A stretch of 64,000 nucleotides of DNA, from contig CM119373.1 of the NCBI GenBank assembly GCA_051294905.1, positions 5,024,001 through 5,088,000 on the forward strand, written 5' to 3'. Below, in pieces: positions 33,824 to 60,200 of the stretch. The notes under the pieces are model-generated. The model had not been told where the DNA came from and did no database searches. It saw nothing but the letters and a program-made list of their open reading frames with translations. Within the stretch, counting starts at the first letter, position 1; the number at the start of each line of letters is the position of its first letter. The position numbers were made by a program, and so were the translations under genes. The DNA comes from Botryllus schlosseri. Lineage: Eukaryota.

Positions 33824-35108
33824 TTGGAGATTGGTATCGGTACTGGTGATACAACAATTTATGTGAATTCAATGTATCGTCACTACCGGTACGTTTAAAA
33901 TTCCAACTTGCTACATATAATTCTGTTCAGTACAGCTGCGACACTGAGTAACAGGAATCGGATCTGTACTGGAAACGCAACGGAACAAATGTTCTTTACT
34001 ACAATAGTACCGATACGAAATGTAACTCACCATCCAGATATTTTCAATCTCGAAAGAGGCTTTCTTCACAGATTCACGACAACTAATACACTGTAAAAAC
34101 TGGGCCTACCCCTAGAGGTGGTTCAAAATGACACCCCATGATCAGAAGGGTAGGGTGGACTGGTCTATCCACGCCACTACGCCACCCCTATCCGGATATA
34201 ACCCTTACCTATCCGGATATATCAACCTTGGGATATACTTTACAAAAGTCAAACCAAGGCATAACAACCTATATCCTGCTCGAATATCTTCATCAAACGC
34301 TCAATCTCCGGTTACCAATACCAACCCATATCTTTGTCAAACGCCTATTCCTGCTGCACTCTTATATACCATATCGGTTTTTGCGATGTTTATTGAAGTG
34401 TTCATTATGCCTCGCATGTTGACATAAATTACTAAACATCGTCATTATTTCAGGCAACTCTTTTGCAAATTAGTCACTAATCTCGCGAAGTTTGGTGCGA
34501 ACAGCACCACTGGCCTTTAAATTAGGCACGCGAGCGAGAAAAATTGACATGAAAGTGAGAGATATTTTAATCTTGGGTGAAAATTTCATGTTGAAGACCC
34601 AATGAATTGATATCATCACCGCCAATGCCTGATGAAAGCTGCGTATTTGTGTCACGCGTTGCCCTTCAAAGCCGACTGTCCACTCTTCATTCGTCGTATC
34701 AAAACAAATGACAGGGTATTCATTTCCGTGTTTGGGTGTCTGTTATTATATCAAAAAAGAATTAGGACAAATCTACACAGCACACCACACAGGCACTACA
34801 CAGCACACCACACAGGCACAGACTTTTAGTAATCAGCAGTGTTGGGATCAAGCCACTACCTTCGAGTGACGAGTCATTTCGACTAGAGTCAAGTCAGAAT
34901 TCAAGTCAAGTTGCCTTTTCGAAGTAAGATGTATGATTACTAGGGCTGGGCACAATGATTCGAGTACTCGAATCTGAATCGAGTATTAATTTTAATGATT
35001 CGAGTGTATGATTATTGATTACGTCTCAAGTGACTTGAGTCAAGTCAAGTCACGAGTCATGTCAGAATTCAAGTCAAGTTGCCTTTTCGAAGTAAGATGT
35101 ATGATTAC

Positions 35109-35628
35109 TAGGGCTGGGCACAATGATTCGAGTACTCGAATCTGAATCGAGTATTAATTTTAATGATTCGAGTCGAGCAGTAAAAGACGATTTTTTCGAG
35201 TACTGAAATTTTACGCACCTCGCAACTGGAAGTTAATTTATCAACGAGAATTATACTTTCGATACTAATTTTCACTATTGAACCTTGAAACCTTGGTTGA
35301 CGGTATCGCACCATACGACAAATATAGTACAAAGCTACGTAGGTAACTGGACGCAGCACATTTTTGAAAGCATGATTATCCCACAACATTGTCACCAAGT
35401 GGAATGAAATCGATCTCGTTCGAAAAATACCAAAGTATCATTTATGAGATGCATAACAGGCATTTTATTTTTTGCGGTGGCATAAAACGGTAGATATTTG
35501 ATGAACTTTGACGTGTTACATTATGTTATGACGTCATAATGGATGATACTCGATTTCTCGACTCGACTTGAAGCGTATTTCGTGATTCAGAATCGAATCA
35601 CTCAGGTACTCGATTTTGCCCAGCCCTA
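35109..35628. mobile_element. hAT MITE (TAGGGCTGGGC family)
   Basis: TIRs TAGGGCTGGGCA/TGCCCAGCCCTA; perfect TSD ATGATTAC; partial copies at ~15000-15100, 16667, 26479, 34941. Confidence 0.9.
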
Positions 35629-38600
35629 ATGATTACGTCTCAAGTGACTCGAGTCAAGTCAGAATTCAAGTCAAGTTGGCTTGACATTTGGCTTGTATTC
35701 AATATTATACAATATTTTTGTTCAAAATCCGCGACACATAGTTTGGAAATCGCTGAAATAAACGAAGCAGATTATACAGCCAGGTGACAGTTACAATCTT
35801 TTTTATCACCAACATTGAACAAATTATGTTAGTTGTGGCAATAAAATACCAATGGTGCGTAATTTACATAGGAGTTAGTTGATAATGCATTCAAATGCTA
35901 ATAACATTAATGAACTTCGCACCTGATCAATCAATAGGAAGTGCTCATACTTTTCGTGAAAAACGGCGGGTACTGCGACCATCCAATCTAGATTCTGAGA
36001 TTCTGTAAAAAAAATACAATAATTAAGTCGGGAGTCGGGTACTACGGGGAGCATCTGATTTTGATGACCAATCAATACGGAGCAAACCATACGGATTTTG
36101 GAAAATAATAAAACTTGGTACAGCTGTTGAAGAGGTCACAGTTCCTGAAAACCAACAGCTATATATTGTAAGTGAGTAATAGCATGACGTACTGGATAAC
36201 TTTTGAATGACTTCTGGGACATTCTTCGAGCTGATGGTATATTGAGCGGAGCTGTACGCTTTGTCCAAAATTCTTTTTGTTAGATCGACTTCACAGAGAT
36301 CATCCTGACATCCAGAAGTGTGGAAAATTAGTTTGAATTCTGCGAGGACCTGGAAAAAGTTATGTCATTAGATGTGTCATCAGATCTGAGATTATGATGC
36401 TATATGTCGCATACCCAGGTAGCGTGTTGCAAGATAGGATATTTTTCGAGCACCTCCTTTGTCTCCATACCACCCTCGATATCGTTTCGTCGCAATTGAA
36501 ACGTCAACTTCATCCTCTTCACCATTACTGTAACATCAGGATGCTTTTTACGAAATTGTTCTTTCATGGCTTTTTGATGGGAAATCACGGCATACTCGTC
36601 TTCAGTGTTTGCGTAAGAACTCAAATCCTTCTGCAAAGTAGTCAAATTTTGAAATATCCAGCGAATATGAATTTTGATAATATTCACACTTACACTGATA
36701 TTAATGCGCGGAGCTTTACATCTAGGAATAGTCTCTTCGTCATCATTTCTACTGACGGCCTCCCTCTTTCTACCAAATTTGCGCTTTTTAGCCAAAATCT
36801 CGGCATCATGCTCAAGTCTGCGACGATAATCTTTGAATTTTGTTATTATCCGACTTTTCCAATAACCCTGAAACACATCGTATTGAGAAAAAATTATAAA
36901 TCTCGTTCATAGAAAAACAACTTACATATTCAGATCCGTTTCCAAATATTAGTCTATCCTTTAAAACCGGGTACATGTTGACCAAAGTTTTGCAGGCGTT
37001 TTTATATTGTTCGGGTTCCGGGTACCTGTTTCAATATCAAATAATATATATTAATAGTGGTAGTAAACAATTTATTTCCATAAAATCTTTTTTGGTAATA
37101 CCTTGTATATTTGACCATGTCCCAAAAAAGCGCAGACACAATATCGCGTCTGAGTTTTTCAGGAATAGAAGTCACATTCTTCCCTTGATAGGGTTCCAGC
37201 TCCTGCTCGAGGTTTTTGGGCAAAGCACATATATATTCTTCGGTCGGCCATCCAAGTCCCGCATCAGGTATTTTGCGAAAAGGTTTTATGAGCGGGGTGC
37301 TGCATCTGGTAGCACCATTTGATGACTTCATTTCATCTTAAAAAGGAATCCAACAAATAATAATCAAAATCAGTGGTTTTCAAACACCGACCCTGGCAAG
37401 TTTCCCATGCCGGTCAGTCAAATATATACAGACCAGAACGATGATGTCCATCATCACGGGTAGAAACGACGATGCTGATATCTGTTGACGAATCAAATGC
37501 TTCATTCTGGTTATCGCTGATTTCCCATAGCAAATCGCCAACCCCCAAGTCATCTGAATCACCCTTTTTCTCGCCTGAACAATCTGTAATGAGATAACAG
37601 TACATTGAGCCTTATACGATATATGGAGGTTAATTAAATGGCATTGCAGGCAGATATGGTGCAGTTGTGATTAGTAATCGTGTAACCCAGGGGTGTCAAA
37701 CATACAGCCCGCGACGCAATTCTGAGTAGATTAAAAATCCATGTCTAATCCAGCAAATTTCCAACAAATGATGAGATACGATAGTAAGAAATACTTCCCG
37801 CATGGCACCAAATGTCAAGATCATCTGACAGCAGTGTTATGGTTTCACTCTAGTTACCAAACCAAATATATACAGACCAGAACGATAATCTCCACCGTCA
37901 CTGGCAGGAACTCCGCTGCTGATATTTGTTGCAAATGTCTCATTCTGGTTATCGCTGTTGCAAATGTCTCATTCTGGTTATCGCTGATTTCCCCTGGCAA
38001 ATCCCCAACTCCCGAGTCACCTTTTTTCTCGCCTGAACAATCTGTAATGAGATAACAGAACGTAAAGTACATGCGTAAATGCCGATTATACAATCTCCTC
38101 GTGTTAGCGAACTTGCACGTATGATGAGCTTGTCAACGAGTCCATAAGTGCTGTCAACTAACGAGCACCTGATCGCTCGCGAACAATTAAATACACCACT
38201 TATCAACGCGTATTACGTAACCTCGGCCATGATTTGCGCGATGCAAAATGCCGTTGTTACGAAATCTGTTTTATAATGGCACCGATTTCAGGTTTTTCAA
38301 ACCTTTCTCGTCTTTTACAACTCAAGCCTTGACACACATACCTTAGTTCAGCACCTATGGCAGAGGTCTCACTCAAATGTGCTCGCGGGCCAATTTCCTA
38401 GTTTTTGATGACGCCGCGGGCCGCAGCATCAATAATAGGGATATTCAATGTATAATTCCCAAGTAGGCATTGTTTGACAGGACCTTGCAAACAGACATTC
38501 CACAAACATCGTGGAAATGTAATTTACTATTGTACTATTCATGCTTGACACGAACAAATCTCATTTTCAAATATTTGAATAAAATTGTTTTCGTGCCGGG

Positions 38601-39539
38601 CATATAATTTGGTAAAATAATGAGTTGCAGACATCATGCGAGACGATGCATCATGACATCGTAATACTGCCGGGTTATAATATTGCAGCTATTGGACCTT
38701 TGACGTGCCACGATTTTATGTATAATCATCTGACAGCAGTGTTATGGTTTCACTCTAGTTACCAAATCAAATATAAACAGACCAGAACGATGATGTCCAT
38801 CGTCACGGGCAGAAACAACACTGCTGATATCTGTTGCCAAAGCAAATGTCTCATTCTGGTTATCACTGATTTCCCATGTCAAATCACCAACTCCCGAGTC
38901 TCCTTTTTTCTCGCCCAAACAATCTGTAATGAAATAATAGCACATTGAGCGTTATAAATATTGGGGACCGAAGAATGGGTATACAAACGGGGATCATTGG
39001 CGACTTGACTAATAAAAAAAGCTCGACCTCGAAACCCCAGACCCCCCTCAGCCAGTGGGCCTTTTGTCGCTACATATCAGCTATAGGAGAGATGTGGTAC
39101 TGATGGATCACAGGGACCAAATGTATATATCTGCGATAGGTAGAGCTTGCACCAAAGTGTTGAGCCAGCAAAAGATCTGCTGTTATCGGCTGAAGACTTA
39201 CGGGCCAGAGATCATTTTCCAATTTTTGACCAATCAATTTCCAATTTTCTCTACTAGTTGCTGACGATTACCCCTGACGAGTGTCAGCCGAAAATATTCG
39301 GGTTCATTTCAATATGAATATACTATTTAATTGTATATTGAAGTTCTATACCTCCAAGAAGCTCTTCAAATTTTCTTTCAGGTGACCGCTTCGTCGCGCC
39401 CCCATTCAGATGATTCACGCCCGCAAGGTTGAGAACCCCTGCTATAGACAACCTAACAGTTTCATTACAATATAATAGAAATGCGTTGTTGGTTTACCTC
39501 CAGTCGATTCCGGTTTTGCTAGAATCTCAATGTACAGTT

Positions 39540-39749
39540 TGTTGTGTAGTGACTCTACGTACGTTCATTGCATGACAGATCTAGTTAGTGTGTCACCTGG
39601 GCAGTGCACATGTGACTGTCTGGGAGTCGAGCTGATGCGATACTGATGTATGCACGACTGCACGTATTCTGTAAATAGCAATATCTTGGATGTAAAAGAC
39701 GCGTGTATTCACTTGTCTGTATCCTTAGCAAGTTAGTAAGGATAGAACA
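39540..39749 (+). repeat. 5' LTR (210 bp)
   Basis: Identical by eye to 44049-44258. Confidence 0.97.
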
Positions 39750-39830
39750 ATTGGCGACGAGGATTAAACTTGCCAAGTCAGTTGGATTACGATTTTGGCG
39801 GAAGAAGAATTGCTGAAGAACAGAGGAACA

Positions 39831-41183
39831 ATGGCTTCAACGGGTAAAGGTTTGTCTTACTTCAATACGAATAAAGCTGCGGGATGGCCGAGCTGGATTG
39901 ATAGATTTGAGATTTGGATGGTGGCAGAGGGTATTACAGACCCTGGCAAGAAACGTGCAAAACTGCTACATGAGGCCGGCGAAGACGTGTATGACATTCT
40001 TAAGACCTTGCCTGACATTGAGGGGGATGAGGATGCGTATGTGAAGACTAAGAAGCAGCTTACGAACTATTTTATCCCGAAGCGGAATAAAATATTTGAA
40101 AGAGACCTCTTCCGGCAAACAAGACAAAATGCTGGTGAGCCCATTCAATCGTACATTACGAGACTGAGGAAATTAGCTGCAACATGTCAGTTTCACAATA
40201 CCGATGAAGAGATTGTGCAGCAGATAGTCTCTTGTGGTTGCGATTCTCGTGTTAGAGAGAAGGCACTGCGACGTGACATGTCTTTGCAGCAATTGTACGA
40301 CTTTGCACAAAGTCTGGAACAATCAAGGCATCAATCGAGGCAGATTGAAAACCACCACCAAGAAGTGCCTGACGCACAGATGCAGGTAAATGCACAACGT
40401 CAAGCAGTGCCATCCGATGGCGAAAGTATGAACAAGCAGAGAAATTACGCTCACGCCTGTTTCCGATGTCGCAGTACAAAACATTTTGCTCGGGCGTGCC
40501 CGTTCAAAGAAAAAGACTGTTCGTTTTGCGGAAGACGAGGGCACAGTGAGAAGGCTTGTCGTTCGAAAGATTCGAATCAATCTTATCGAGAAACGGCTGG
40601 CTCAAGCAGCCAGAATAGAGTGAAAACGCTTAGCGCGGAAGAAACGAGGAGTGAAGCCTTGGAAGAGTACGATGACGGTGACTTCCTGAATTCTATTGGC
40701 AAAGAAGAAAATGCAGATTCTGCTGATTTGGACTTGGGAGATACAAAGCCCTACTTCATTTATCTGGAAGTTGACAATAAACAGCAAGAGCTTGAATTGG
40801 ATTGTGGTGCTGCTCTCACAGTGTATCCACAGCATGTCTTCAGAGAGTTGTGGCCCGATGCCCAACTGAAGGCGTTACCAAGGAAGCTGTATACTTACAC
40901 GCGGCAACCACTGAAGGTCGCTGGATATATGGATGTGTTTGTAAGATATGGAAACTTTGCTGGATATTTGCCATTGATCGTTGTCGACATGCCCAATTTG
41001 TCTGAACGACCATTGTTGGGTAGGAATTGGATAAGAAGCATCAAACCAAGTTGGATATCGATTGACAAAGTCGATGTACAGGCTGGAAAGCCTGATATGG
41101 ATGTACAGCAGCTGCTGAAGAAATACCCTGGCATATCAACTCCTGGTTTAGGCTGTGCTAAGACGACAGCTAAGTTAGGTTAG
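39831..41183 (+). CDS. gag: Gag-protease
   Basis: Two CCHC knuckles (CFRCRSTKHFARAC, CSFCGRRGHSEKAC); protease LDCGA and LLGRNW; first ATG at 39831. Confidence 0.93.
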   Translation: MASTGKGLSYFNTNKAAGWPSWIDRFEIWMVAEGITDPGKKRAKLLHEAGEDVYDILKTLPDIEGDEDAYVKTKKQLTNYFIPKRNKIFERDLFRQTRQNAGEPIQSYITRLRKLAATCQFHNTDEEIVQQIVSCGCDSRVREKALRRDMSLQQLYDFAQSLEQSRHQSRQIENHHQEVPDAQMQVNAQRQAVPSDGESMNKQRNYAHACFRCRSTKHFARACPFKEKDCSFCGRRGHSEKACRSKDSNQSYRETAGSSSQNRVKTLSAEETRSEALEEYDDGDFLNSIGKEENADSADLDLGDTKPYFIYLEVDNKQQELELDCGAALTVYPQHVFRELWPDAQLKALPRKLYTYTRQPLKVAGYMDVFVRYGNFAGYLPLIVVDMPNLSERPLLGRNWIRSIKPSWISIDKVDVQAGKPDMDVQQLLKKYPGISTPGLGCAKTTAKLG

Positions 41184-43887
41184 TGAATCAGTATCTCCGA
41201 AATTTTTCAAAGCTCGTCCTGTACCGTTGGCTTTGAAGGCTGCATATAATGCGGAGATTGACCGACAGGTCAAGATGGGAGTACTGAAACCAGTGAAAAC
41301 TGCAGATTGGGCTGCGCCAGTGGTTACAGTTGTGAAGTCTGATGGAAAGTCAGTGCGCTTGTGTGGGAGTTATGATCTTACAGTGAACAAAGCAAGTAAA
41401 CTGGAACAGTATCCGCTACCGAAAGTGGATGAACTGCTTACGACATTTGCTGGTGGACAGAAATTCTCTGTTATTGACTTGAAGGAAGCTTATCTTCAGT
41501 TACCCTTGGCAGAAGAGAGTCAGAAGTACACCGTGATCAATACTGCTAAGGGGTTGTTTTCAACAAATCGTCTGGTATACGGAATATCCAGTGCTCCAGC
41601 GATATTTCAGCGGTATTTGGAAACACTGCTGAGTGGATTACCCCATGTGGGAGTTTTTCTGGATGATATTGGAGTCACAGGAAAAGACGATGCTGAGCAC
41701 ATGGCGAATTTGGAAGAAGTATTCAGACGATTGGAAGATGAAGGCTTGAAGATCAACACAGAGAAGTGTAAATGGATGGCTCCAGAGATCAAGTATCTGG
41801 GCTACAGCATTAGCAAAGATAGAGTTAGTCCGACCGAGGATAACTTGAAAGCAGTACTTCAGGCGCCAGAACCTGAAAATGTTGCACAAGTACGATCCTA
41901 TCTGGGAATGCTGAATTATTATGGAAAGTTCATCAACAACCTTTCGACGATTGCCGCACCATTATACAAGGTGTTACGTGGTGATGTTAAATGGACTTGG
42001 GGCAAGGAAGAAAGAGACGCTTTTGCTTCTACAAAGAAGTGCTTGTGTCGAGCGCCAGTCCTCGCTCATTTTGATATGAGTGCCGCAGTTATCGTTTCCG
42101 CAGATGCTTCGCCGTATGGGGTTGGCGCGGTTTTGTCGATCGTTACTGATGGTGCAGAAGAAAGGCCCGTTGCGTATGGCTCACGTTCTTTGACAAAGGC
42201 GGAACGCAATTATAGTCAGTTGGACCGGGAAGCGTTGGCTTTGGTTTTTGCCGTGAAAAAGTTTCATTTATTCCTTTACGGAAGATCGTTTGCCCTCGTG
42301 ACTGATCACAAACCTCTTTTGGGTTTGCTGGGCAAGAAAAAACCTCTTCCTGATAACGCATCTCCTCGTTTGATACGATGGAAAGTTCTACTTGATGGGC
42401 ACGAGTACAAGTTGGTTTATAAGCCAGGAGTCCAGCAAGCCAACAGCGATGCGTTGAGTAGACTGCCGCTGCCGGTGAATGGGAAGATAGAGCCATGTGG
42501 AGAAGTCGTGAAGTTGTTGTCAACTATGGATGCTCAGTTGATCAAGGCGGAAACCTTGCGATCCTGTACGATGAAGGATCCAGTGTTGTCAGCAGCGGTG
42601 TCTTACAGCCAGAGAGGCTGGCCAAAAGCGTCAGACTTGGAATTTGAGTTGCATCCGTACAGAAATAAGGAAGCAGAACTCAGTGTTCATGAGGGATGTC
42701 TGTTTTGGGGAGGCAGAGTCGTTGTTCCTTCTCGATGCAGAAATGAGATGTTGATTCTGATGCATGATGGTCATCCTGGAATTTGTGCTATGAAGAAGAT
42801 TGCACGCAGTTACGTGTGGTGGCCTGGATTAGATGCAGATATTGAAGATTTTGTGAAAAGCTGCAACCAGTGTCAACAGCTGAAACCGCAAGCTGCCAAG
42901 GTTCCTATGAGCTCATGGTCATACCCTGATGCTGTTTGGGAAAGAATTCATTTGGATTATTGTGGTCCTGTAGATGGGAAAATGCTGTTGATAGCAGTGG
43001 ATGCATACAGCAAATGGCCGGAAGTTTATACAACGAATGGTGTTACCGCAGAAGAGACTATGAACAGTCTGCGAGGTGGTTTTGCGGCATTTGGTCTACC
43101 TAAAGTATGCGTTACGGATAACGCAGGCTGTTTTGCTGGATCTGAATTTGCGGAGTTCATGAAGCTGAATGGGGTAAAGCATCTGTTTTCACCTCCCAGG
43201 CACCCTGCTTCTAACGGTCAGGCAGAGTCCATGGTAAAACAGTGTAAACTTGGTTTGAAGAAGCAAAAAGCAGCGCCGTTGCAAGTGCGCTTGCACCGTT
43301 GGCTTTTCCGTTATCGGAATACACCTCACAGTTTTACGGGTCAAACGCCGTCGGAAATGATGTATCGTCGAAAAATCAGGACTCACCTGGACTTGGCGGT
43401 CTCCTCATCTCGGTTCTCGAAACCAAGTACAATATTTAAACCGAGAGAAAGTCGGGTTTTCAAAGTTGGAGATCCTGTTTACCTTACTGAGATTGTTAGC
43501 TCTCAGTACAAATGGCTGCCTGGTACAGTTATGGCATGTGAAGGTCAATGTTGCAGGATTAAACTGAAAGATGGAAGATTTTTCAGACGACATTTGGATC
43601 ATATTCGACCTCGCTATACAGTCGAAGAAGAACAGGTTGTTCGTGACGAAATTGAAATGGACAACATTCCAGAACCGGTAGTGGAAAATGCAGAGAGAAG
43701 TTACGAGTCTACTCCATTGGAGTCCAGCGGTTCGAGCGAGGAGAGACAAGTTCCTGTTCCTACCTCTGATCGTGAGATTGAAATGATGAATGACGATGTA
43801 CGAGGACCTCCTTCATCTTCTGGTGGGAGTTCCACAGTTACCAGATCGGGCAGGATCTGTAAACCTCCTGAAAGACTGAATCTCTGA
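41178..43887 (+). CDS. pol: Pol (reverse transcriptase, RNase H, integrase), +1 frame relative to gag-pro
   Basis: 'PKFFKARPVP', RT FLDD, RNase H DASPYGVGAVL/TDHKPL, integrase HHCC and D-D-E (HLDY, TDN, QAE). Confidence 0.95.
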
Positions 43888-44048
43888 TTTTTGTCGGGTG
43901 ACTAAATCTCGTGTTGGACTTTTTCTTGTCGGATTAGTTTGTCACCAGTGACCGTTTTTTTTGCCTTGTAAATGCTTGCTTGTGTGTTTGTTTCATTATT
44001 CTCTCTGTTGTTGTTGTGTGTCTCTCATCCATTAAGGGGAGGAGGAGT

Positions 44049-44258
44049 TGTTGTGTAGTGACTCTACGTACGTTCATTGCATGACAGATCTAGTTAGTGT
44101 GTCACCTGGGCAGTGCACATGTGACTGTCTGGGAGTCGAGCTGATGCGATACTGATGTATGCACGACTGCACGTATTCTGTAAATAGCAATATCTTGGAT
44201 GTAAAAGACGCGTGTATTCACTTGTCTGTATCCTTAGCAAGTTAGTAAGGATAGAACA
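44049..44258 (+). repeat. 3' LTR (210 bp)
   Basis: Follows the PPT; identical to the 5' LTR. Confidence 0.97.
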
Positions 44259-44491
44259 CAGTTTGCCTTTGTGTTCAACGTCTGCATACTGCAGATCAAT
44301 ATAGGCGTTTAATTCTTCGTCCAAATACTTGATGTGAAGCTCATCTTGATCACACAGCACATCTCCAAATATTTCAAGAACTCTCTCTACTATGTCAGAG
44401 GCATTGTCGACAAAAATAGGCCTACAATAATGAAGTAGTGTAGCAGACAATTTCATTGCTATCTGAATAAACATAATATATTAGCAAACGG

Positions 44492-44920
44492 TCATACATG
44501 GCTGTGGTCCGACAGGCATACGCGATGATGAAGTCTTATATATTTTGACCCATTCATTGTATATGCATCAAAAGGTCTCTTGTAGATCAAATCCTTCGGT
44601 GAAAAAGCATAAAAGTTACCAGTCTCACGTATACAGTAACAGTGCAGATGACGATTAAATGTTAACGATTCAATTAATTCACCCAGGATTTTACATTGCT
44701 TGTCAATAATCAAAATGTATTCGACTTTACAAAATATAGGCCCATTCTCATTTTCGCAAACAATAAATATTGAACCGCATTCATACTTATCTGGTCCATC
44801 ATAAAATGTCTTAGCCTTGCCAATTTCATCTGGCAAAATTTGGATGTACCTCTCAGTAAATTTCATTGAATTGTGTATCGCATTGTACATTGTGTGTGTC
44901 TTGATTTGATGAAAACACAA
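44492..44920 (-). pseudogene. C-terminal remnant of EnSpm/CMC-type transposase
   Basis: 'YECGSIFIV...PIFCKVEYILI...FNRHLHCYCI...LIYKRPFDAY...YIRL' matches the tail of animal EnSpm transposases; catalytic core absent. Confidence 0.7.
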
Positions 44921-45055
44921 TCTGATAATTATTTATATTGATACACCCGTTCCATGCTATTGCACTTCGCCGCGAAAATACAGCTGACTGGGACGCCCAA
45001 ATAGATATCATTCATCGAATGGATGCTATTGACGGTGTATGTTATTGACGGAGCC

Positions 45056-45691
45056 ATGAGCAAGACAGCTACTCAATCGGACAAGGAATTTACGCCTGAG
45101 ATGTCTGATTATAATAGTGATCATGAGTTGCATGTGATTCTTAAAGATATTCGTCATCATGGCGATCAAGTGAACAAGCGGATTAAAAGCATTTATGAGT
45201 TGCTGAAAACTCATCATGTTGTTTCGAAGTGTGTGCCATCAATTTTGATGTATGAATGGCATGTTTACAAAGAACTCGTAGAGGCAGAGGAGAGCAGCAA
45301 GCATCAAGATAAATATCTTCTTGCTGACAAACTATATAAGATGTTTCGATCGACTGGTCTTGGTAAAAGGATTATGTCTGACAATGAAATTATATTGTCA
45401 GTGGCTCGGTATCTCGATGCAAAGAACCTTCCCCGGACAGGGGACGAATTTCTGCTTGATGGTGACGAGTTGAAGGATGTCATGGGTACCAGAAAAATAA
45501 AGAGGATAGGAGACGTTTGGGAACATCATACCCCCCATCTCGTCCGTGTGTCTGATAAGCAGATCGAAGAAATGGAATCTATTGACACGTCGCAATGGAT
45601 GATCCAGTTCAACTTGTTGAAGGAGAATGAGCAACGAAACGCCGGGCATCCGAGAAGACTCAACTGCGTATTGACAAATGCCTCGCTATAA
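45056..45691 (+). CDS. intronless protein with SWIB/MDM2-like domain
   Basis: Intact ORF (gccATG at 45056; upstream in-frame ATG at 45023); AATAAA ~20 bp after the stop; 'YLLADKLYKMFRSTGLGKRIMSDNEIILSVARYLDAKNL...DELKDVMG...TPHLVRV' aligns by eye to the SWIB/MDM2 pattern. Confidence 0.75.
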   Translation: MSKTATQSDKEFTPEMSDYNSDHELHVILKDIRHHGDQVNKRIKSIYELLKTHHVVSKCVPSILMYEWHVYKELVEAEESSKHQDKYLLADKLYKMFRSTGLGKRIMSDNEIILSVARYLDAKNLPRTGDEFLLDGDELKDVMGTRKIKRIGDVWEHHTPHLVRVSDKQIEEMESIDTSQWMIQFNLLKENEQRNAGHPRRLNCVLTNASL

Positions 45692-48449
45692 TTACCATGA
45701 GGAAATCAATAAATAAATTTCTGTGGTTGCGTGTTTGATTTGCTTAATTTCAGGTCGCTGATAATAGCCCAAATGAGAGTAGCCATAACATAATAAATAG
45801 AACTCTGACATTGCGCTGAAGAACAGGTAGAGAACCACAACAACGTTATCATTTTTAAAAAGATAATGCAGTTGAAAACATATATGAATGTATCGATTGA
45901 GGAATCTAGCCCGCCAAGCACTTGATTTCCCATATCAGGACCACCGAATAAAATGTCAATATGATACCAATTCTTACTGATCGCGCAAAATTGCCTGCAA
46001 CCAATGACGGCCACGACAGGCGTAGACGTAACGCGAGATATACTGTAAACGCACATAGCATTAACCTCGTTAACCAGAGAGGCGTGTGTTACGATATTTC
46101 TTACTTGAACAGAGTATATAGCCATCAGTCTCGATTTTATCTGTGCTGCAATCTGCCATGCTGTTTTGATTACGAATAAACCACTTCATTACCTCGATCT
46201 GTTTTTACGCAGACATCCTCCCGAATCACGTCAAATCAGCTATCTTGCAACGAGCGTCATTCGAAGATCAAGCAAACTCCCGTCATAGGTCTGGTCTACA
46301 GAATAATAAGTAGGTCGCTATGCGCATAACTTATACATTGTATATTATACTCTCCCCATAATGTGCTATCTTCGCTGACTAAAGACAAGTGCATAACTCA
46401 GTCAGCGTTTATGGTCCCGAGCGGTTGTTCAGAATAATACACGCACAAACCAACTCTATATCTTTCTGTCGATAAATGCCCCCAAGTACAATTGTGTAGA
46501 ATACAATCACGTATAACTTACCGCCTAAATTCCATGACATAAGTTTGTCTTTTATTGTGAGTTTCTTGAACAATGTTGCGACTTCCTGTTAAACTCACTG
46601 CTATATTTTCAAATTACGAAACTATTAAATTCTGATTTTATTCATTCAATTCCTATTTAATGATGCTGATTTGCACGGCTGACCGATTAATATTCTTTCA
46701 CTCTCTCTATGTATCAATAAATGGTATCTGTCAGTCCGTCCGGCCGATATGTTGATTTGACCAGCAGTGACCTTGAGCACATATGCATTCAATCTCGCGA
46801 CATCAACCCCGCGCAAGCATCTCGCGTGTACATATATATATATAGCCCATACGTATTAACGCGCATCAGGCGGTGATGGAAAGATCATATAGCGGGAACG
46901 TATATGTTTCCTCAATTGATCAGAGGATGGGATCGCCGTTATACGCTCAATCCAGGGTGGAAGGATGTAATCCACCGCACTTCAGGGGTGAGAGTAACAT
47001 TCCTACCCCTGTTTCACCTTATCATGGGGTGGAATAGGGTGGTCAACCCTATGTGAGAGGTAGAACACCCAGATCCACCGCTATTCCACCCCAACACCCA
47101 CGCTTATTTTTTACAGTGTACGGTCAGTCGATAGCCAGTCTGGTCTCTTAAGCGCGGAAATACGGCATATAACGAAACATTTTACATAGCTGTAGCGTAA
47201 CATAGCAGCAGCTGTTCTGGTGACGACGGTTTGTATATTCCATTATGATGTGACAATTGACTCACTGATGTAATAACTATATTGAAGTTGAGGATCTCCG
47301 GAATATTTGTAAGGATCTCCGGAATATTTGTAAGTATACTATAATTGATTTATCGGAAATATGGATTTGATAGCTGTGAAGCTGCAGATTGCATCATAAT
47401 AAGCTTCAAAAAGTCTTGCAGTACTAGATTTATCTTCATAGATCGAACCATTGATACGATCCGAAAGCTGTATGCTTTGTCGGTTAGGCTTAGTGTGCAA
47501 TTCATAAAGCTACCAAATAGTGAATAACACATCAATATAGATATGAAAATAACCAGGAAACTTTGCCCAATTTAGTCCCTCTTTCGCCCAATTCAATGAT
47601 TGTTCCGTGACGTAACCTGGTGTTCCATTCTAATTTGAATTCTTGCTACGCCCATATTGCGTACTGCTCATATACGTTGTGGCTGCAATTTAACTCCTTC
47701 TAGTATTCCCAGCTCTAAATACCCTTCACCTCCATTATATTGTGGTTATACACTAATGCTGTGCGGAATAGGCCCGATATATTTTGTACAAATAGGCTAC
47801 GTACAATGTACAATTGTGCATTTGACGTGACATGAAAGAAATTATAAACCAGTATCGTGACAACTTCATAATGTGTCGTATTTTTGCGACACACTTGAGA
47901 TACATCGGTCACACTATAGTAGACAGAGTGAAATTTCAGCCAAAGTACGAGTACCGCAGTGCACGATAAATGTGAATTACAATATGATATTGCGGACTTA
48001 GCTATTATTCATTCATGTCAATGTAGCACACGAACTAATACAACGAATGCTTATTTGTCACTGAAGCTGAAAATATATGCGTAGGCGAATTTACTTGATC
48101 GTACCGGGTTAAATCCATAAAGACTGAACAATGGAACATTGCCGAAGCCTACCCAAGAAGCCTTAAAGACATGGACAACAACAAAGTGGGCGAAAACACG
48201 CATTTTCGGTGGATAATTCAACCCCAAAGAGAATATGTCCTACACGACCTACAGTTAGACACAGCAGAGAAGTTCTCAAGTGCCCACACAACGATCAGTA
48301 CAGTGATTCGACTGAATTTTTAACAAGAATGCAGACTTGCCGCACCCCTGCCTGCTTAACCAGGCTTCTGACCGACACAGACTTAAAACTTCAACAGTCA
48401 AGTTTTGTGGAAGCGGCTAGCGCGGATTGAATCCCAAACTTCATATTTG

Positions 48450-48665: not shown

Positions 48666-49500
48666 GAGACCTCTTTTCCATAAATATATTCCCACAAATA
48701 TCGCACTGATAGGGTTTCATGCCAGCGTATGGGTGTTTAACCGAGTTTTCTGATGAAACGCCTCTGCACAGATCGTACAATTGTGGTATTTTTCATCTTT
48801 GTTCTGACCTAGCGATAGGCTTTAATAAACTTATTCTGCAACAGACGACAAATGAGATATACAGTATAGGAACAGTTCAGATACGATAACACAAGACCAA
48901 CACCTAAAACAACTGACAACGGATTACCTACTCACAGCACTAGGTAAGGAGAGTGAGCGTAATCAACGTGAATCAATCAATGATGGAAAGTACATACAGA
49001 TAAGGAATAGTACAATCTTACAGTAGACCCATATGCCGACTGAAAGCATTTTCGACCGAACTCTTTCGCACAAATATCACACCGATGTGGTCTAACACCG
49101 ATATGATCGTTTAAATTCCGGGGCTGAGAAAACGTCTCTGCACAGATCCAGCATTCGTGGTTTTTGATACCCAGATGTGTAGCTACATGGTTGACGAGAT
49201 CGATTTTTCGGGTGAACTTCTTGCCGCAGATACAAAACACGTGGTGTTTACTGTCAGAGTGAAGAGTCGTGTGCATCGTCAGATGATCCTTCCGAATACA
49301 TTTTTTCGCACAAATTCGACACTAGTGGTTTCTCGCGCCGTCGCGGATACCCATCTGCCTCATGAAACTACTTTCTCGAGTAAAACTCTCCCCACAAATA
49401 CCACAGTGATGGTTACCCGGAGTGAGCATCCAGATGGATTTTTAGGTTCCGTCTTCGAGGTAAATTCCTTCGGACAGATCCAACATGGAAACGACTCCAT
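48666..49500 (-). pseudogene. decayed C2H2 zinc-finger array
   Basis: 'CICGKKFTRKIDLVNHVATHLGIKNHECWICAETF', 'RPHRCDICAKEF', 'KPYQCDICG'; frameshifts and deletions. Confidence 0.85.
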
Positions 49501-50106
49501 AGTTAGTTAGCTTGCACACTAAAATATTTCCTGTGTATTACAAAAAATGTTAAGCCACTCGGTACTGATGAATAATCACGAAGTAATTATAACAGCTCGG
49601 CTGTATCATTACTAATCCTAATTTATAGGACTGATTGGGTGACTCGTGTACTCACAACTTGAAACCTATTCTTAACCAGACATTAACATGACAAACTAAA
49701 ATAAAATAGTTTTACTAATTAATCAGCGAACACGGAGCAAAATAGTTGTACTAATCAGACATCAATAGAAACATACCTATATACATAGACGCTGTATTTA
49801 ATAATTTTTATGTGATGTTTTACCGCTATAATGAACTATTTAGAAGTTGAAATGTCATCGATTTACAGGTAATGTGTAAGCACCTCTGAAATTGCTGAGC
49901 CGCCGTCGCTGATGTATGTATCTACAGTGGGTCGGCATATACACTGCTGTAGTGACCATGTTTGGCCCAACCTACGCATGTGTACATGGATTTTCGCATT
50001 TAAAAGGAGGATATCGACAAACCTGGGTTCTCGTACCAAAAATTTCGCAAAGGAGGGAGGATATCGACAAACCTGCGTTCTCGTATCAAAAATTTCGCAT
50101 GCTTCA

Positions 50107-50593
50107 AGGGGCACTGCGCTCTAAAAATGATGTGGTCTCAAATTGAAGGTAAAAACGAACAAAAATTTTTGGCCGCGGCTATTTCCTTCAGAACGCCACC
50201 GTAATGGAGCTGCAATTTATTGAAATTTCTACAAGACCAGCTGCCGCGGCTGCTTAACCCGTTACATGGCACGATATTTTCACCGTCGCACTTGCTTGAC
50301 GCGATTAGGCAGTCACGCAGAGAACGAATTTTAGATAGTTGTCAGCCGATGTTATGAAGGAAATGTGTCTAAGTTTCGTTCTCTGCGTGACTGCCTTATC
50401 ACGTCGAGCAAGTGCGACGATGAATACATCGTACCATACGGGTTAAGCAGCAGCGTCAGCTGGTCTTGTGGAAATTTCAATAAATTGCAGCTCCATTACG
50501 GTGGCGTTCTGAAGGAAATGGCTGCGGCCAAAAATTTTTGTTCGTTTTTACCTTCAATTTGAGACCACATCATTTTTAGAGCGCAGTGCCCGT
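50107..50593. mobile_element. foldback (long-TIR) non-autonomous element, Kolobok-like
   Basis: ~230-bp near-perfect inverted arms with a short spacer; TTAA on the right flank and a degenerate TTAA-like site on the left. Confidence 0.8.
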
Positions 50594-52739
50594 TTAAATG
50601 AAGCAACCAGTATGATTAGTACAAGTTTTTAGAGAGAAGGTTGCCCATGCCAAGAAGTTCGAATTGGAGCTACCATGAAGTCTCCGAGACTTTGATTATT
50701 ACGTAACAGTTGATTGATATTGATATTATGGCTCTTAGGGAGGTAAAATGGGTAACATAGGACTAACATGGCTCTTCGGACAAAAAAGGGAATGCTTTCG
50801 AAAATTTAGGGCAAGTTACAAATGATAATGCATCTTCGGATGGGCCAATTGCTATTAGTCACTTTGTTGAGTGACCCCTCATCAGGATTGTAGGTATATA
50901 TAGAGTGGAAAAATATTGAAATCGCTAAAATGAACCACAAACAAATTTCTTTCGTGAGGAGCACAAGATTTCGATTCCGGCTCAGATTTTAAAGTGCCCT
51001 TATATATTAAAATCGAAATGAAGACGCATTAAATCACGTGGTGCGCGAAAAAATTTTTAGGAATAATTGAAATCTTCCAAATTCGGGAGTGAATTCGTAA
51101 TTTTAATTTGCGTGTCTACGCTCACACATACCGGTTGAATTATGTGTCGATGGCCGCACACATTCCCTTCTGCGGCTACATGCGAACGTACGGCCGCCGG
51201 TTGCCCAAAGTGTCTGCCAAAGAATAATTCACGCAGCTCTAAAAACGCACTGGCAGATTATGACCGTAGTAGTACAGAGACCGTTCTTTGATTTAGTTTC
51301 CGGTAGAATAAATATGCTTGAAAACTGTCGTGTCTAGTATTGTCGTGCTGGAAAACTGTCGTGTCTAGTATTGTCGTGACGAGTAAATCCGCGGGAATAT
51401 CGAATGATGCTGCTCACCAATCTTGATCTATTGCTTATATAGCCGCGCATTATACCACGAAACATGACCGCTGTTTCGAAGACATTAAATAGGTTCCAAT
51501 AGGCGCGGGGTATCAAAAAATTTCGCAAGATCGACCAAATCGGCCAGTATATGACGTTCTTACGTGTGTATAAAATGAACACGAATCTCACACCATAAAA
51601 CGACTTTCATTCTTCTGCTACTATGATTGGCCTTTCCATTATTAGATGACTTCGTTGGATTGCTGAGTAGAAGGCAGCATCGACGGCTGACTAGCAAAGT
51701 CTTTTTTAGCCGACCCTTTAGCCTTGAGCTATACGTCCATCGGATTCGCTATCACTGCCTAGTGAATCCGTAGCAACGTGTTTCCATTAAACCCAGACCC
51801 TCGATCAATAATCAGTCTGGTAATTTAAGATCTCGTATTTTGCTAATTGAGCAGCTGAAAAACAAGTACGTACGCGACGACGTCTCAACCCGTAAAATGA
51901 TATCCATGTGTGATGCTGCGCGCAATGCACTTTTCTACACCAGGCTGTCAGTAATGAATCACATAGTTTTGCAGCGTGCTCGAATAGACTTGCCTCAATA
52001 GATGTGCCTAATTGCGTTATTTACTCAAGGGATTATGATTTACTCAAGGGATTATGATATTGGACTACTCACACTTCTGATTAGAATTTTCAGTTTCTTT
52101 GTCAAACTCCAGTCTAGAATATTTAATATTTTACTTACTTGGAATTCGCTACTTTTATCTACTTGTACTTGAGTACAAATTTATGACGGTAACTTCTCTG
52201 TCCACTGCTGATTGTGCTTTCCAGAAATCGCTAATTTTTGTCAACGCAACGAATTCGAGGGACTACAATCCGAATTCGTGCTATTGCACAGGTACTCAGC
52301 ATCGTGAGCTTGCTCTCAAATCTACGTAGCCGTATGCGTTTATGCGACATTCCCTCCGCCCATCATGTGGTATACATTGTACTCTGCCTTAGCGAAGCGA
52401 CAGCTTTCAGATGTTGCAGACTGGCTGTCCCTTACCATATTGGGATGACAATGTACCTATTTGTTTGATATGTCGCTTAAAAAACGTTGTAAACATTCTT
52501 GAAGTGATGCCCGTAATATTATATGTAGTTAACGATAAATTACACTCCTCAGCAACATTCAGTCAGCGCCAAATAACTTCTGGCGACTTCGATGCCGTGT
52601 TAATGATTCTGCGGGTCTATATTGCGACTTAGCGCAATGTCATATCCTGGATTGCGAAATCGGCCTGCTCTGTGATTCCGTATCCAAGGCAATTGCAGCA
52701 TTTTGTCCTGCTCTGGGATGGATTCGATGTCCACTTCTG

Positions 52740-55690: not shown

Positions 55691-56135
55691 TCATTAAGCG
55701 GCTGTATGTAATATCGAAATACCCTCTCTATTAGCTCATTTGCAATTTAGCAATTCGTATTATCAGTGCCTCTAATTAGCGAGAATCGACTGGACACCGA
55801 CAGCCGTCGCTGAGCTCTCACATTGTTTGTCATTCAGTCGTACGCGAAATCGTGTGATTTTGTAGCGACACCATGCGGCGCCACCACTGTGGTCATCGAA
55901 CCGTAAGTAGCTTTGTCTCATTTTCATGTCGCTTGATATATAAAGCCGTTTGATTGTACAGTACATTGCTCAGTTCGCTCAAGTGCTGCTTACGATAAAC
56001 TTGTCAATCATAGAACAGTGAATTTAGAATATATAGAACATACAGTAAGCCAGTAATCAGGGAACAGTGCAGGAGATTGAGAATTGAAACGGCAAAGATC
56101 TGTTGCTGGCGTACGTGAAATAAAATTTAACCTCG

Positions 56136-57266
56136 GCAGCCTCCCATACGAAGACTGCAGTAAGTTTGAAATACAACTACACGCGGCCTGTACCGGCGCA
56201 CGTAGTATACAAAACTTACTTCTGCAGCCTCCGAAAAGGAGACTGCCGTAATTTAACCTCTGCAGCCTCCCATACGAAGACTGCAGTAAGATTGAAATAC
56301 AAATACACGCGACCTATACCGGCGCACGTAGTATTAATAACTTACCTTTGCAGCTTCCCATACGGAGACTGCCGTAAGATCGTACCTACACAACTACACG
56401 CGGCCTGTACCGGCACACGTAGTATTCATAACGTACCTTTGCAACTTCCATACGGAGACTGCCGTAAGATTGAGCTACAACTACACCCGGCCTCAACCGG
56501 CGTACGAAGTAAACAAAACTTCTGCATCCTCCCTTAAGATTGAACTACAGAGAAAGAGAGAGAGAGTATTTATTTTAATCGAACCAAAATACATAACAAA
56601 CGGCAGTGATGGTGGTACAGAAAATATGCATGCACAGTATTCGGTATTAGATAGGAATGATCGATATGACCGTGAAGGTCATCTAGTCTGATCACACCAG
56701 CATCAAACAGGTACACTTGACACTGAACAGTCTGGCTGTAAAAAAATGTTCAGTTAAGAAAGGAAAATAGAAAAAAATCAAACCATGGTAGCAAATGATC
56801 AATGTCTGGGCGAGGTAGGGCAACAGTGTTAGTGTAAAGACAAGAGGTGATCAAGTAGGGCTTTTTTAAATTTATTATAAGGCAATTCACGGCCTATACC
56901 GGCGCAAGTAGTGTTCAAAACTCTTCTGAAGCCTCCTGTAAAAGGACACGACCGTATGATCAAATGAACTACAACTACACGCGGCCTATACCGGCGGCGT
57001 ACGTAGTATTCATAACTTACCTTTGCAGCTTCCCATACGGGGCAGCTTCCCATACTCAGACTGCCGTAAGACTGAGCTACAATTACACGCGGCCTCAACC
57101 GGCGCACGAAGTAAACAAAACTTACTTCTGCAGCGTCCCATAAGATTGAACTACACGCGGCCTATACCGGCGCACGTAGTATTCGAAACATACTTCTTCA
57201 GCCTCCCGTAAAAGGATACTGCCGTAAGATTGAACTATAACTACACGCGGCCTATACCGGCGAACG
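56136..57266. repeat. ~88-bp tandem satellite, about 9 units
   Basis: Unit GCAGCTTCCCATACGGAGACTGCCGTAAGATTGAACTACAACTACACGCGGCCTATACCGGCGCACGTAGTATTCATAACTTACCTTT; interrupted at ~56548-56888. Confidence 0.9.
56548..56888 (-). mobile_element. 5'-truncated CR1/L2-like LINE tail inserted in the satellite
   Basis: ORF end 'PYNKFKKALLDHLLSLH*', 3'UTR, AATAAA, then (CT)n tail. Confidence 0.6.
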
Positions 57267-60200
57267 TTACCATACATAGTATACACATTACACAATTAGC
57301 AGTGACGCTGTCACACAAAATTTTATAACACAAATCAAAGGGTACCTACTGAATCTAACATGAACCGTGGTATCTTCACAATGATGTAACAATGGCGTAT
57401 CCGGATTTGGACACTGACATATGATAGAACGTAGATATAACTCTGCCCAAATTTTACGTAGATCCGTCGCCAAAACGTGTCCAAAATAGATAACTATGAA
57501 TTAGCGTTTGTTTGTAATATTTGATCCTACGCGAAAAGCTCTGCTGATTCGATGAGCGCAGTTCCGTAAAACAGCATTTGTAATAGATGTCCACGATATC
57601 CCTAGACGTAGCTTGTATAGCAACTTACATGTGTCAAAAATAAGAGCTATTTCTAGAAAAAATTTGATGCATTTTGGCGAATCGCGTTTGAGGATTGCAA
57701 CGAAATCGCAAAAAACTCTCGTGTTTCGATGAGCTCAGGAAAACACTATTTTCAGTTAAATGTCCATGATATCTCAAGACGTAGCTTGTATGTACAAGGC
57801 TGTGGCACCAAACATCATAAACAGGGGCATAGAATGGTTGAAAGAAAGCAAAGCCGCAATAGATTTTAAAGAGCAGAACATTTGAACTCGGCAACAATGA
57901 CTGAATCACTCAAGTTCATTTAGTAGACACAGACTCTTCTACAGAAGAGAGCTAACAAAGGACATATGTTATCATGCAACTCGATATACACACGATTCAA
58001 GTTCAGCACAAAAGTCTCAACACATGCTTTGAATGAAGAATATAATAACAATATTAATAATGAGGGTGAATCGATACAACTTGAACATATGCTTCGGTGC
58101 AAATAACCAGTCAACAAAACTGAAATATTATTCAAAGATGTCTGGCATCGAGGGGAGGCAGACATGTCAAAGACAAGACTGGATGGTTGGAAATAATAAT
58201 CAACGCACGGGGTAATCAGATATAAACATGTCCAATGTATTTGCGACATGATTGAATAAATATTCAATTAAATAAATATTATTTACTTACAATCAAAGAC
58301 TTGATTAGCCCTCTAGCCATCAAAAATGATACACGAGCAAGGTTACAATTCTAATGTCATCCTAACCCATGTCGCAATAAATTTCACTAGTGCAGAAAAT
58401 GATCATGAAATTTTATAACCAAAACTTTCCACCACTCTAAAGGCTGTTGCTGTCGTGCAGCAGGAACTCCGAAAAAGCAAAATATTTTGAATAGCTGCAG
58501 AGTACATCACTGAAGACGTACAGTTGAAGTTCTTCTTCCTAACGAAAGTATACAACGACTACTACTAGATGATTCTGTACAACGGAGCATTTACAAAGAC
58601 ATGCACCTAAAGTACTGCTTCATAGCACAAGTTTACAATGACTACATTGGATGAATTTCCAAGTATGTTGAAGAGAGACGCAAAGTGGAGAAAGGACATG
58701 ATCCGATTCGTCATCCGAAGCGAATAGAACTGCACGGAGACTGGTAAAACATGGTAGGATCGGCTTCCTGGCTAAGATTGAGGTCGCCCCTATTGCTTGC
58801 AAGGAAAATTTGATGAACTGCGAAGTAGAAGACCCCTGCAACGATTAGCATTGCGTCTCATCATGTAGTCCTTCATGATTCATTTGTACCAAGACCACAT
58901 CCTGAATACATATCGATAAATACGTGCAAATTACAGTACACAACACTTATGTGTTGCTGATATTGATGCGAGGCGTGCAAATTACTGCCCAACATAACAT
59001 TGAGCAGAGGCAGAGTTGTCTAAAACATGGTGCGGTGCTGGAATAATAATATTAATAAGGGTTCTAGAAGATTCGTTGGAAATTACTTGTTAACAATACT
59101 GCAAAATATTACTCGAAGATGTCTGTCATCGAGGGGATGCAGAGTTGTCAAAGACAAAGTGCGATTGGATGTTGGGGTGAAGAATAATTAACAGACAGTT
59201 AACTCTCTCCATCAACGGTATTTTGCATCCTAATAGAATGTTAAATACCTGAAGACCAGACAGGGTGTTTATGTTGAAATGGTAGAAGACTAGCCCAAAG
59301 CCACCAGAGACATAATAATACAATCCCTATTATTAACATGAAACCAGGCAGGGCTTCAGAGATGATAAAAGGGCAGTGAGAGAATGGCAAAGAAAATAGG
59401 GAGCTTTTCAAAAGGAACGAGCTAACAAACGGCATTCATTATCGCAAAGAACGATAAGAAAACGACTCAATATGTCAAAGATGCAACGATTAGACGTCAC
59501 GCGTGCAATACATATAGCTGCAGCATATATATGGACCCTGGAAAATAAATTAATAAGTCACAGGGACAGAGTAGTCGAGGATACGCCTCTGCTGGATGTA
59601 ATGCAAGCCAACTACAGGTCTACGTGGAAATTGAAGAAAATGCTGCGCCTAGATGTAATGCATGCAAACCATCACACATGGCGCAGAATATATATGATAT
59701 TGCTGTATTGAACAAAGAAAATCCTGTCATAAGAATGAGTGGTTAAAGATATGCTTAGATGAGACGTCATAAGGGCAAATTACTACATCTACGTGCAAAT
59801 TAACGAAAATGTTGCGATTGGACGTAATGCGTGCAAACGTATCACACATAGCGCAGTAGCAATAAATTTCAGAAGCCCCTGTAGTGTTGCATAATGCATG
59901 TTCTTCTACTGGGAGCTTGTTCAAAGATCAATTTACAAAGAACCGCTTACAGATATGCCGAAACATGACCCTATTTGTAATTCGAAGCCAAATCGCAATA
60001 AATTTCACTAGCGCATAAAATGAAATCATGCATCTCGTGCTTTCAAATACCAGCAAGGTTACATTGCCCATGCAGTGTTCCCTATAGTGACGTGCAGAGA
60101 CATTACCCGACAGGAGGGAGGAAAATGATAGGCTTTGCTAACGTTATATGATATCAAACTACCTAGTAACGGTTACAACATTCCAACTTCATGGAATTGT

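Follow-up and report, generated by a model that had tools for sequence, protein, structure and literature searches.

Can a DNA transposon carry a copy of the p53-binding domain of its host's own MDM2, and what would such a gene do? The question is raised by a 64,000-nucleotide stretch of Botryllus schlosseri DNA (assembly GCA_051294905.1, contig CM119373.1, positions 5,024,001 to 5,088,000, forward strand), the whole of which is called the window here and to which all coordinates without a contig name refer. The window harbors an open reading frame (ORF), P0001, that lies within a non-autonomous DNA transposon termed family B; related full-length elements elsewhere in the genome are termed family A. 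A preliminary description made from the sequence alone had taken P0001 for an intact MDM2-like gene inside a CACTG-ended (EnSpm) transposon and for a candidate antagonist of p53 or chromatin. It is highly probable that the gene stems from the p53-binding (SWIB) domain at the N-terminus of MDM2 and is carried as transposon cargo. The features on which this is based are the following.

34089..47118, no strand assigned: non-autonomous DNA transposon of family B, 13,030 bp together with its nested insertions, with TA-flanked inverted CACTGTAAAAA ends
34089..34099, plus strand: left terminal inverted repeat (TIR), CACTGTAAAAA; the same 11 nt open the 31-nt TIRs of family A
47108..47118, minus strand: right TIR, the reverse complement of which is CACTGTAAAAA
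44492..44932, minus strand: transposase remnant ORF (match 44516-44845), head-to-head with P0001
45056..45691, plus strand: P0001 ORF, encoding an MDM2-type SWIB domain between a predicted helical N-terminal region and a short conserved tail
45305..45550, plus strand: MDM2-like SWIB or p53-binding-type domain, ORF residues ~84-165, from hhalign, genome search and an AF2 model
45708..45713, plus strand: AATAAA polyadenylation signal, 17 nt past the stop codon of P0001

Homology of the encoded protein to MDM2

P0001 is an intact, intronless ORF of 211 codons at 45056-45691 on the plus strand. Its stop-free translation and the AATAAA at 45708 agree with what had been described. The start context around the ATG at 45056 is GAGCCATGA, and an alternative in-frame ATG is located 33 nt upstream at 45023. 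No Pfam family was matched by the protein at E<=10, so that the absence of RING and zinc finger noted before is upheld; a Pfam scan of the neighboring ORFs returned nothing.

For residues 84-180 of P0001 there is homology to the p53-binding domain at the N-terminus of the host's MDM2. The host gene was found on contig C13 (locus L007, 1495-2904; ~1749.4-1750.9 kb) as an uninterrupted open frame of 499 codons, 469 of them from the Met, which appears intronless and encodes a RING and a RanBP zinc finger in addition to a SWIB domain (Pfam, 3.6e-9). Against human MDM2 structures its N-domain reaches an E-value of 2e-17, and its nearest named relative is an Mdm2-like protein of Styela clava (39% identity). 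When the 495-Mb assembly was searched in six frames with P0001, all 8 first-look candidates were scored and 7 matches were obtained; the SWIB domain of host MDM2 was the only one outside the gene's own family (E 4.2e-6). The family-A paralogue P0003 independently retrieved host MDM2 as its only outside match in the genome (E 4.3e-4). Direct comparison of P0001 and host MDM2 by BLASTP yielded 24% identity over 100 aa (pairwise E 1e-11), which substantiates the alignment first made by eye. The homology is also seen between profiles: a profile of five transposon proteins (A5) and one of five MDM2 proteins (A6) were aligned by hhalign over 94 columns with a probability of 97.6% and an E-value of 3.7e-12. 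The S-x-G-x-x-K stretch of P0001, previously pointed out as an MDM2-like insert, indeed aligns with S-V-G-A-Q-K of MDM2.

The same comparisons distinguish between the two host classes of SWIB domain. A hidden Markov model (HMM) built from the transposon proteins alone scored 51.5 bits on host MDM2, but on the two BAF60-like SWIB exons of the host it reached only 1.6 and 0.0 bits. This indicates, in line with the preliminary description, that the domain is of the MDM2 type and not of the BAF60 type, and disfavors the alternative offered there, a mimic of SWI/SNF. Language-model features (ESM-Atlas) of residues 80-180 provide a lead only, the ten best named matches all being SWIB clusters (0.86, 178 shared features).

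Several searches nevertheless tell against this assignment. Both P0001 and P0003 were missed by the Pfam SWIB model (PF02201) in the family scan; this check had been proposed at the outset and, taken alone, would have led to a wrong rejection of the homology to MDM2. Genome-wide and in six frames, PF02201 matched only a BAF60-like gene on C12 and the MDM2 gene on C13. No match to P0001 was obtained from the PDB by phmmer at E<=10, and a full-length profile of the transposon proteins (A2) retrieved no MDM2 from the PDB but only coiled-coil noise. A word-indexed search of 5.8 billion proteins gave no match to P0001 and equally none to residues 1-115 of host MDM2. A profile search of 1.84 billion representatives found no MDM2 at E<=0.001 and gave five matches, two of which are real, namely the predicted proteins P0004 (241 aa) and P0007 (85 aa), further relatives present in public data; the other three were rejected as repeat-protein artefacts.

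Beyond the SWIB domain, host MDM2 shares a motif W-M-x-Q-L-P-W-W-Y-F, about 30 residues downstream, with the tunicate-type MDM2s P0009 and P0010. The transposon proteins carry a possibly related motif (Q-W-M-I-Q-F or T-W-S-Q-Q-F) about 15 residues past the domain.

Predicted fold and helix-binding cleft

A model of the P0001 domain was predicted with AF2 from a 10-row domain alignment (pLDDT 75.9). When it was compared by VIA-align with 48,161 chains, MDM2 was matched with Z 12.6 (root-mean-square deviation 1.7, 83 aligned) and MDMX with Z 12.0 and 11.0; below these followed BAF60 (Z 10.8) and plant SWIB proteins (9.9 and 8.3), and the first unrelated chain reached only Z 3.3. Foldseek agreed, with MDM2-type structures as best matches (E 6e-6, TM 0.70-0.83). 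As modeled, the domain has a SWIB fold, a twisted bundle of helices that includes small strands, and is closest to MDM2 and MDMX. The structure comparison suggested in the preliminary description therefore came out in favor of the MDM2 N-domain, with the qualification that 5 of the 10 alignment rows were themselves MDM2s. With the five transposon rows alone the prediction was unusable (pLDDT 43).

The cleft is partly preserved. Thirteen positions, which we take to be those of the MDM2 pocket, were compared in the alignment, and P0001 is hydrophobic at 8 of them. The changes include M62D and H96I, while Y67 and V93 fall into gaps, which detracts from a conserved pocket; the human residue numbering (M62, Y67, V93, H96, Y100) is likewise assumed. 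At the position presumed to be human M62, the transposon proteins harbor Asp, tunicate MDM2s Glu and vertebrate MDM2s Met. The presumed Y100 is replaced by Trp in the transposon proteins, as in tunicate MDM2s.

In comparison with MDM2 and MDM4 (MDMX), the protein is thus alike in its homology over ~95 residues, its nearest predicted fold and the hydrophobic character of most cleft positions. Judged from its sequence, it would lack intrinsic E3 activity; masking is then all that it could do to a bound helix, as with MDMX or an isolated N-domain. It differs from both in lacking the acidic domain, the RanBP2 zinc finger and the RING, in possessing an extra helical N-terminal region, and in being encoded by a transposon in several copies. 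In a joint alignment, the transposon proteins share only 13-26% identity with MDM2s, and P0001 remains below the Pfam SWIB threshold.

The carrier transposon and its relatives

The inverted CACTGTAAAAA ends at 34089-34099 and 47108-47118 are flanked by a 2-bp TA target-site duplication (TSD; 34087-34088 and 47119-47120), which confirms that the ORF lies between the TIRs of an element. Contig C10 holds a decayed second copy, which is colinear with this element (73-91% nt identity) and of which one degenerate terminus remains. The transposase remnant that adjoins P0001 in opposite orientation (44516-44845, minus strand) is truncated, as had been reported: it encodes only the C-terminal 110 residues, corresponding to residues 722-830 of the 835-aa family-A transposase P0002 (44.5% identity, E 9e-26, tblastn). 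Its closest relatives in the genome are 57-62% identical. The truncation is an internal deletion and was not caused by the long terminal repeat (LTR) retrotransposon that is nested in the element. The window element is therefore an internally deleted, non-autonomous copy that has lost its transposase, whereas the MDM2-like gene is intact and apparently transcribed at a low level.

Three family-A elements of 9.95 kb each hold the P0001 paralogue P0003 (30% identity) beside an intact transposase; the check for further copies that had been called for thus located them in the same kind of CACTG-ended element. P0003 comprises 299 codons from stop to stop and is positioned head-to-head with P0002, that is, in the same divergent position as P0001 relative to the remnant; P0002 is open in each of the three elements (835-839 aa). 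The TIRs of family A are 31 nt long with one mismatch and open with CACTGTAAAAA. The flanking sequences of the insertions differ, and their 2-bp TSDs are TA and TT. The copy on C1 at 203 kb and that on C3 are 99.96-100% identical, and a second copy on C1 is 98-99.6% identical to both. Since this divergent arrangement with a 30%-identical paralogue recurs in three near-identical full-length elements, the MDM2-like gene is a long-standing cargo of a CACTG-ended cut-and-paste transposon lineage with 2-bp TSDs. In the genome, P0001 matched the window copy, two pieces of the C10 copy, one locus on C13 and three open paralogues with 29-31% identity. With P0001 and P0003 as queries, the six-frame census amounts to four intact MDM2-like ORFs and one pseudogene (C10), plus host MDM2.

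The transposase itself matches Pfam only below threshold (Plavaka, E 0.004, 16.9 bits against a cut-off of 26.3; DUF4218, E 0.14). Its ESM-Atlas features resemble those of animal clusters of ~800 aa (0.97) and of Plavaka-bearing clusters (0.94 and 0.90). On these two grounds the element is called CACTA/Plavaka-like. The CACT(A/G) inverted termini of the CACTA or En-Spm (CMC) group are present in the window element and in family A. The TSD of plant and other classical CACTA elements is 3 bp, but the three elements with both ends, window element included, all have one of 2 bp (TA, TT, TA), a length in keeping with Mirage, one of the branches within the CMC group. The EnSpm label given earlier agrees with the CACTG-ended termini, while the length of the TSD departs from classical CACTA. 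The transposase superfamily is large and diverse in this genome, with 54 scored matches among 351 first-look candidates. Several subfamilies possess multiple identical open copies of ~800 aa, for example four identical copies of 818 aa on C3, C4, C7 and C14, and this suggests that several lineages were recently active.

The arrangement of the two genes raises the possibility that the protein serves transposition itself. It could be an accessory protein like the second protein of En/Spm, whose cleft binds a helix of the transposase or of a host chromatin or repair factor instead of p53, and which assembles or regulates the transposition complex or targets chromatin. The fixed divergent position beside the transposase in full-length elements, the element-specific helical N-terminal region and conserved tail that flank the domain, and the retention of the gene by a non-autonomous copy are consistent with such a role. 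Plant CACTA elements encode two proteins, a further parallel. However, an F-x3-W-x2-L-type motif is absent from the transposase, and no DNA-binding motif was detected in P0001 by the Pfam scan. Most related transposase subfamilies, including one 94%-identical element, lack the gene, which shows that the core reaction is independent of it. An accessory function in transposition is therefore regarded as unlikely.

The distribution of the gene also counts against the inhibition of p53 considered below. Among 30 transposase loci inspected with 1.5-kb flanks, an MDM2-like gene was present at only three, and the subfamilies closest to the window remnant are among those without it. At locus L023 (C7:3978994-3984402) the transposase is 94% identical to that of family A, and the cargo region is replaced. 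From the small fraction of loci with the gene and from this element it follows that the gene is dispensable for an open transposase frame. The replaced segment at L023 is ~1.3 kb long, and ~0.84 kb of unrelated sequence stands in its place, so that the locus represents a natural variant without cargo.

Origin and maintenance of the gene

The transposon proteins exclusively share residues with three tunicate-type MDM2s in 21 columns and with two vertebrate MDM2s in 9, a count that covers ~95 columns, is unrooted and is biased by the unequal number of rows. The Trp at the presumed Y100 is one of the 21. By this residue sharing, the gene was probably captured from a tunicate MDM2, in the host's own tunicate-like lineage. 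The two transposon lineages have a helical N-terminal region and a tail in common, both of which are absent from MDM2; this suggests a single capture, after which the lineages diverged for a long time, down to 30% identity. Compared with MDM2, the cargo gene has gained the element-specific N-terminal region, while zinc finger and RING have been lost.

Whether the captured gene has been maintained is less evident. Among the family-A copies, the MDM2-like ORFs show 23 nonsynonymous and 9 synonymous differences, giving a ratio of nonsynonymous to synonymous rates (dN/dS) of 0.65 (P=0.20). The adjacent transposase shows 19.5 of each, and its dN/dS of 0.26 (P=1e-4) indicates constraint. Between the window ORF and the C10 pseudogene dN/dS is 0.98. 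The check among copies that had been called for hence revealed no purifying selection. Further, the ORF region is ~81% identical to the C10 copy at the nucleotide level, while the non-coding flanks are 84-91% identical, so there is no excess conservation, and the window gene has no close copy other than this pseudogene. Taken together, these values lower the probability of a selected function.

They favor an alternative in which the gene is a non-functional, transduplicated fragment of host MDM2, a passive Pack-type cargo whose frame in the window is open by luck or youth and whose transcripts are noise. The dN/dS near 1 in both recent comparisons, an ORF no better conserved than its flanks, the decay of the C10 sister copy, the absence of the gene from most related subfamilies and the age and non-autonomy of the window element all agree with it. 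On the other hand, two lineages of only 30% identity both keep a full-length frame and a SWIB core with 12 invariant columns, host MDM2 included. Frames are open in 4 of the 5 genomic copies, the relatives P0004 and P0007 occur in public data, and the paralogue is intact in very recently active elements (99.96-100% identical copies). Moreover, the at least 6 disabling lesions that separate the window and C10 copies are all on C10 and none on the window copy; they comprise a TAA, at least 4 frameshifts and the loss of 24 nt that code for conserved residues. The gene is thus not a decaying fragment private to one non-autonomous family, and passive carriage is considered improbable. From these comparisons, the gene is either fast-evolving or under weak constraint, and dispensable for the transposase.

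RNA reads at the window copy

In one single-cell RNA run, 21 reads were located in the P0001 region, mostly at 45436-45790. They have the orientation expected for a plus-strand mRNA in a 3'-tag library, and coverage drops at 45720-45790, just past the AATAAA. A few single-cell reads of opposite orientation lie over the transposase remnant. The reads carry the changes H158L, D177V, a silent change at Q184 and R194L. Because of these variants they may stem from another allele or copy, which diminishes their value for the window gene. RNA support is thin in other respects as well: the bulk runs X9 and X11 yielded no reads at P0001 and constitute no test, and run X13 gave three reads that fit in part but continue into other sequence. 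Run X6, which bears the label of organism B, contains ~23% of the sampled 31-mers of window 44850-45800, and a near-identical sequence to this segment may exist under a second species label.

Transcription from an immobile, transposase-less element, together with the fact that this is the only intact family-B copy, would also fit a domesticated host gene, i.e., a transposon-derived MDM2-like regulator kept for the benefit of the host. Yet the gene is not conserved above its flanks and is still bracketed by recognizable TIRs, which makes domestication very improbable.

A putative function against p53

Transposition-induced breaks activate p53. In addition, p53 is described as restraining mobile elements (PMC4701979) and as acting in P-element dysgenesis (10.1101/204800), and the p53-MDM2 axis is reported for Ciona (PMC6743176). 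A function of the cargo gene at this point can be envisaged as follows. The P0001 protein would keep the hydrophobic helix-binding cleft of MDM2, to judge from the aligned residues. With this cleft it would bind the amphipathic transactivation helix of a host p53-family protein and so mask it, in the way of MDMX or of the MDM2 N-domain on its own. As the RING has been lost, masking would occur without degradation of that protein. The p53 response to the double-strand breaks made by excision would be blunted, and cells in which the element moves could survive and transmit it. Cargo and p53 masking, put together as one statement, are proposed tentatively and at somewhat less than even chances. 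The fuller scenario, in which a transposon lineage stole the p53-binding domain of host MDM2 and uses it, without RING, as a portable inhibitor of the p53 family against the checkpoint for excision breaks, is possible but more doubtful.

The p53 side of the host was also analyzed. The p53-family genes comprise the tandem, apparently intronless paralogues L050 and L051 on C6 and multi-exon genes on C12 and C10. L050 and L051 are located at 18597.5-18599.3 kb and 18605.2-18607.1 kb of C6, and their open frames measure 390 and 423 aa. At the N-terminus both contain S-D-S-Q-E-S followed by a degenerate BOX-I without Trp, which argues against the proposed masking. A genome search with the Pfam model P53_TAD gave only sub-threshold matches away from the p53 loci, and the exon for the transactivation domain of the C12 and C10 genes was not located by it. 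When the domain was co-folded with residues 1-50 of one of the p53-like paralogues of the host, the score was 0.00; the run was made without controls and bears neither way on the proposed masking.

Other features of the window

Besides the MDM2-like gene and the transposase remnant, the family-B element contains the following insertions and repeats.

39540..44258, plus strand: nested Ty3/gypsy-like LTR retrotransposon with reverse transcriptase, RNase H and integrase domains and 100% identical 211-nt LTRs
37376..38943, no strand assigned: internal repeated blocks of ~100-130 nt (repeat families D3, D5, D8, D11 and D14)

The retrotransposon is flanked by a CAGTT target duplication (39535-39539 and 44259-44263, read from the flanks), and its frames are open (gag, 450 aa; pol, 870 aa). 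It is a later insertion into the DNA transposon and not part of its cargo, and it looks to have inserted very recently. The earlier statement that the neighboring transposon genes are broken accordingly applies to the transposase, but not to the retrotransposon with its identical LTRs and open gag and pol. An ORF at 44094-44474 on the minus strand was rejected as a gene, as it runs into the LTR.

Outside the element, an open frame of 549 codons at 8374-10023 (minus strand) encodes NACHT and NOD2 winged-helix domains and represents an NLR-type innate-immunity gene or exon. Just beyond the right end of the transposon, a short C2H2 zinc-finger ORF is found at 48977-49276 on the minus strand (Pfam zf-C2H2, 2.7e-9). 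A near-perfect palindrome at 50103-50597 has 160-nt arms that are 96% complementary and separated by 175 nt, with a second inverted pair of 70 nt nested between the arms; it could be a foldback element or similar to a miniature inverted-repeat transposable element. An array of repeats of ~126 nt and shorter related units (families D1, D2, D6 and D7) occupies 56124-57279.

Relation to known systems and significance

To our knowledge, counter-measures against p53 by genomic parasites have until now been viral only. A search of full-text literature, which for the most part did not extend to subscription journals and Repbase reports, found no transposon-encoded MDM2 or p53-binding domain. A review that traces the evolution of Mdm2 names, in this context, SWIB proteins of viruses only. 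It lists SWIB proteins of phycodnaviruses, a precedent for this domain in a parasitic genome, and p53 antagonists that bind the N-terminus of p53, such as adenovirus E1B-55K (PMC6372010). Viral stand-alone SWIB proteins and BAF60/SMARCD are of the same fold class as the domain of P0001 (BAF60 Z 10.8, plant SWIB Z 9.9), but P0001 has a specific affinity to MDM2, and its carrier is a cellular cut-and-paste transposon and not a virus. With antagonists of the E1B-55K type, the transposon gene would share the logic that a parasite neutralizes p53 via its transactivation domain. Those proteins have no sequence relation to MDM2, whereas here a domain of the host's own p53 inhibitor is copied.

Additional genes beside a transposase that are thought to act on a control pathway of the host are known from transposons as well. 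Examples are VANC of the Arabidopsis VANDAL elements and the TET/JBP genes of fungal transposons of the KDZ/Plavaka type (PMC5735166, PMC10398659, PMC12730594). The Plavaka-type transposases are also the nearest named relatives of P0002. VANC and TET/JBP counter epigenetic silencing, while the target proposed here would be the damage response of p53; as cargo, a recognizable domain of a host regulator is carried. Transduplication of host gene fragments by Pack-CACTA and Pack-MULE elements is described as well (PMC6379663). The window element resembles these as a non-autonomous copy of a CACTA-like element with a host-derived coding segment. It differs in that the gene is complete, open and independently transcribed, and in that it occurs in two deeply diverged lineages and in autonomous copies.

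An accessory or captured gene in a DNA transposon is thus a known phenomenon, of which a cargo derived from MDM2 is a new variant. The failure of PF02201 illustrates that curated HMM thresholds can miss MDM2-like transposon cargo. Even if the gene were inert, it would remain a clear case of the capture of a host regulatory gene by an animal CACTA-like element. If the proposed function is true, P0001 would stand as the first p53 antagonist encoded by a transposon and would directly show that p53 surveillance is a selective pressure on DNA transposons. It would then provide a concrete, testable case of a transposable element that fights the damage checkpoint rather than epigenetic silencing, and a natural minimal RING-less MDM2 domain for studying the ancestral contact between p53 and MDM2 in a non-vertebrate chordate.

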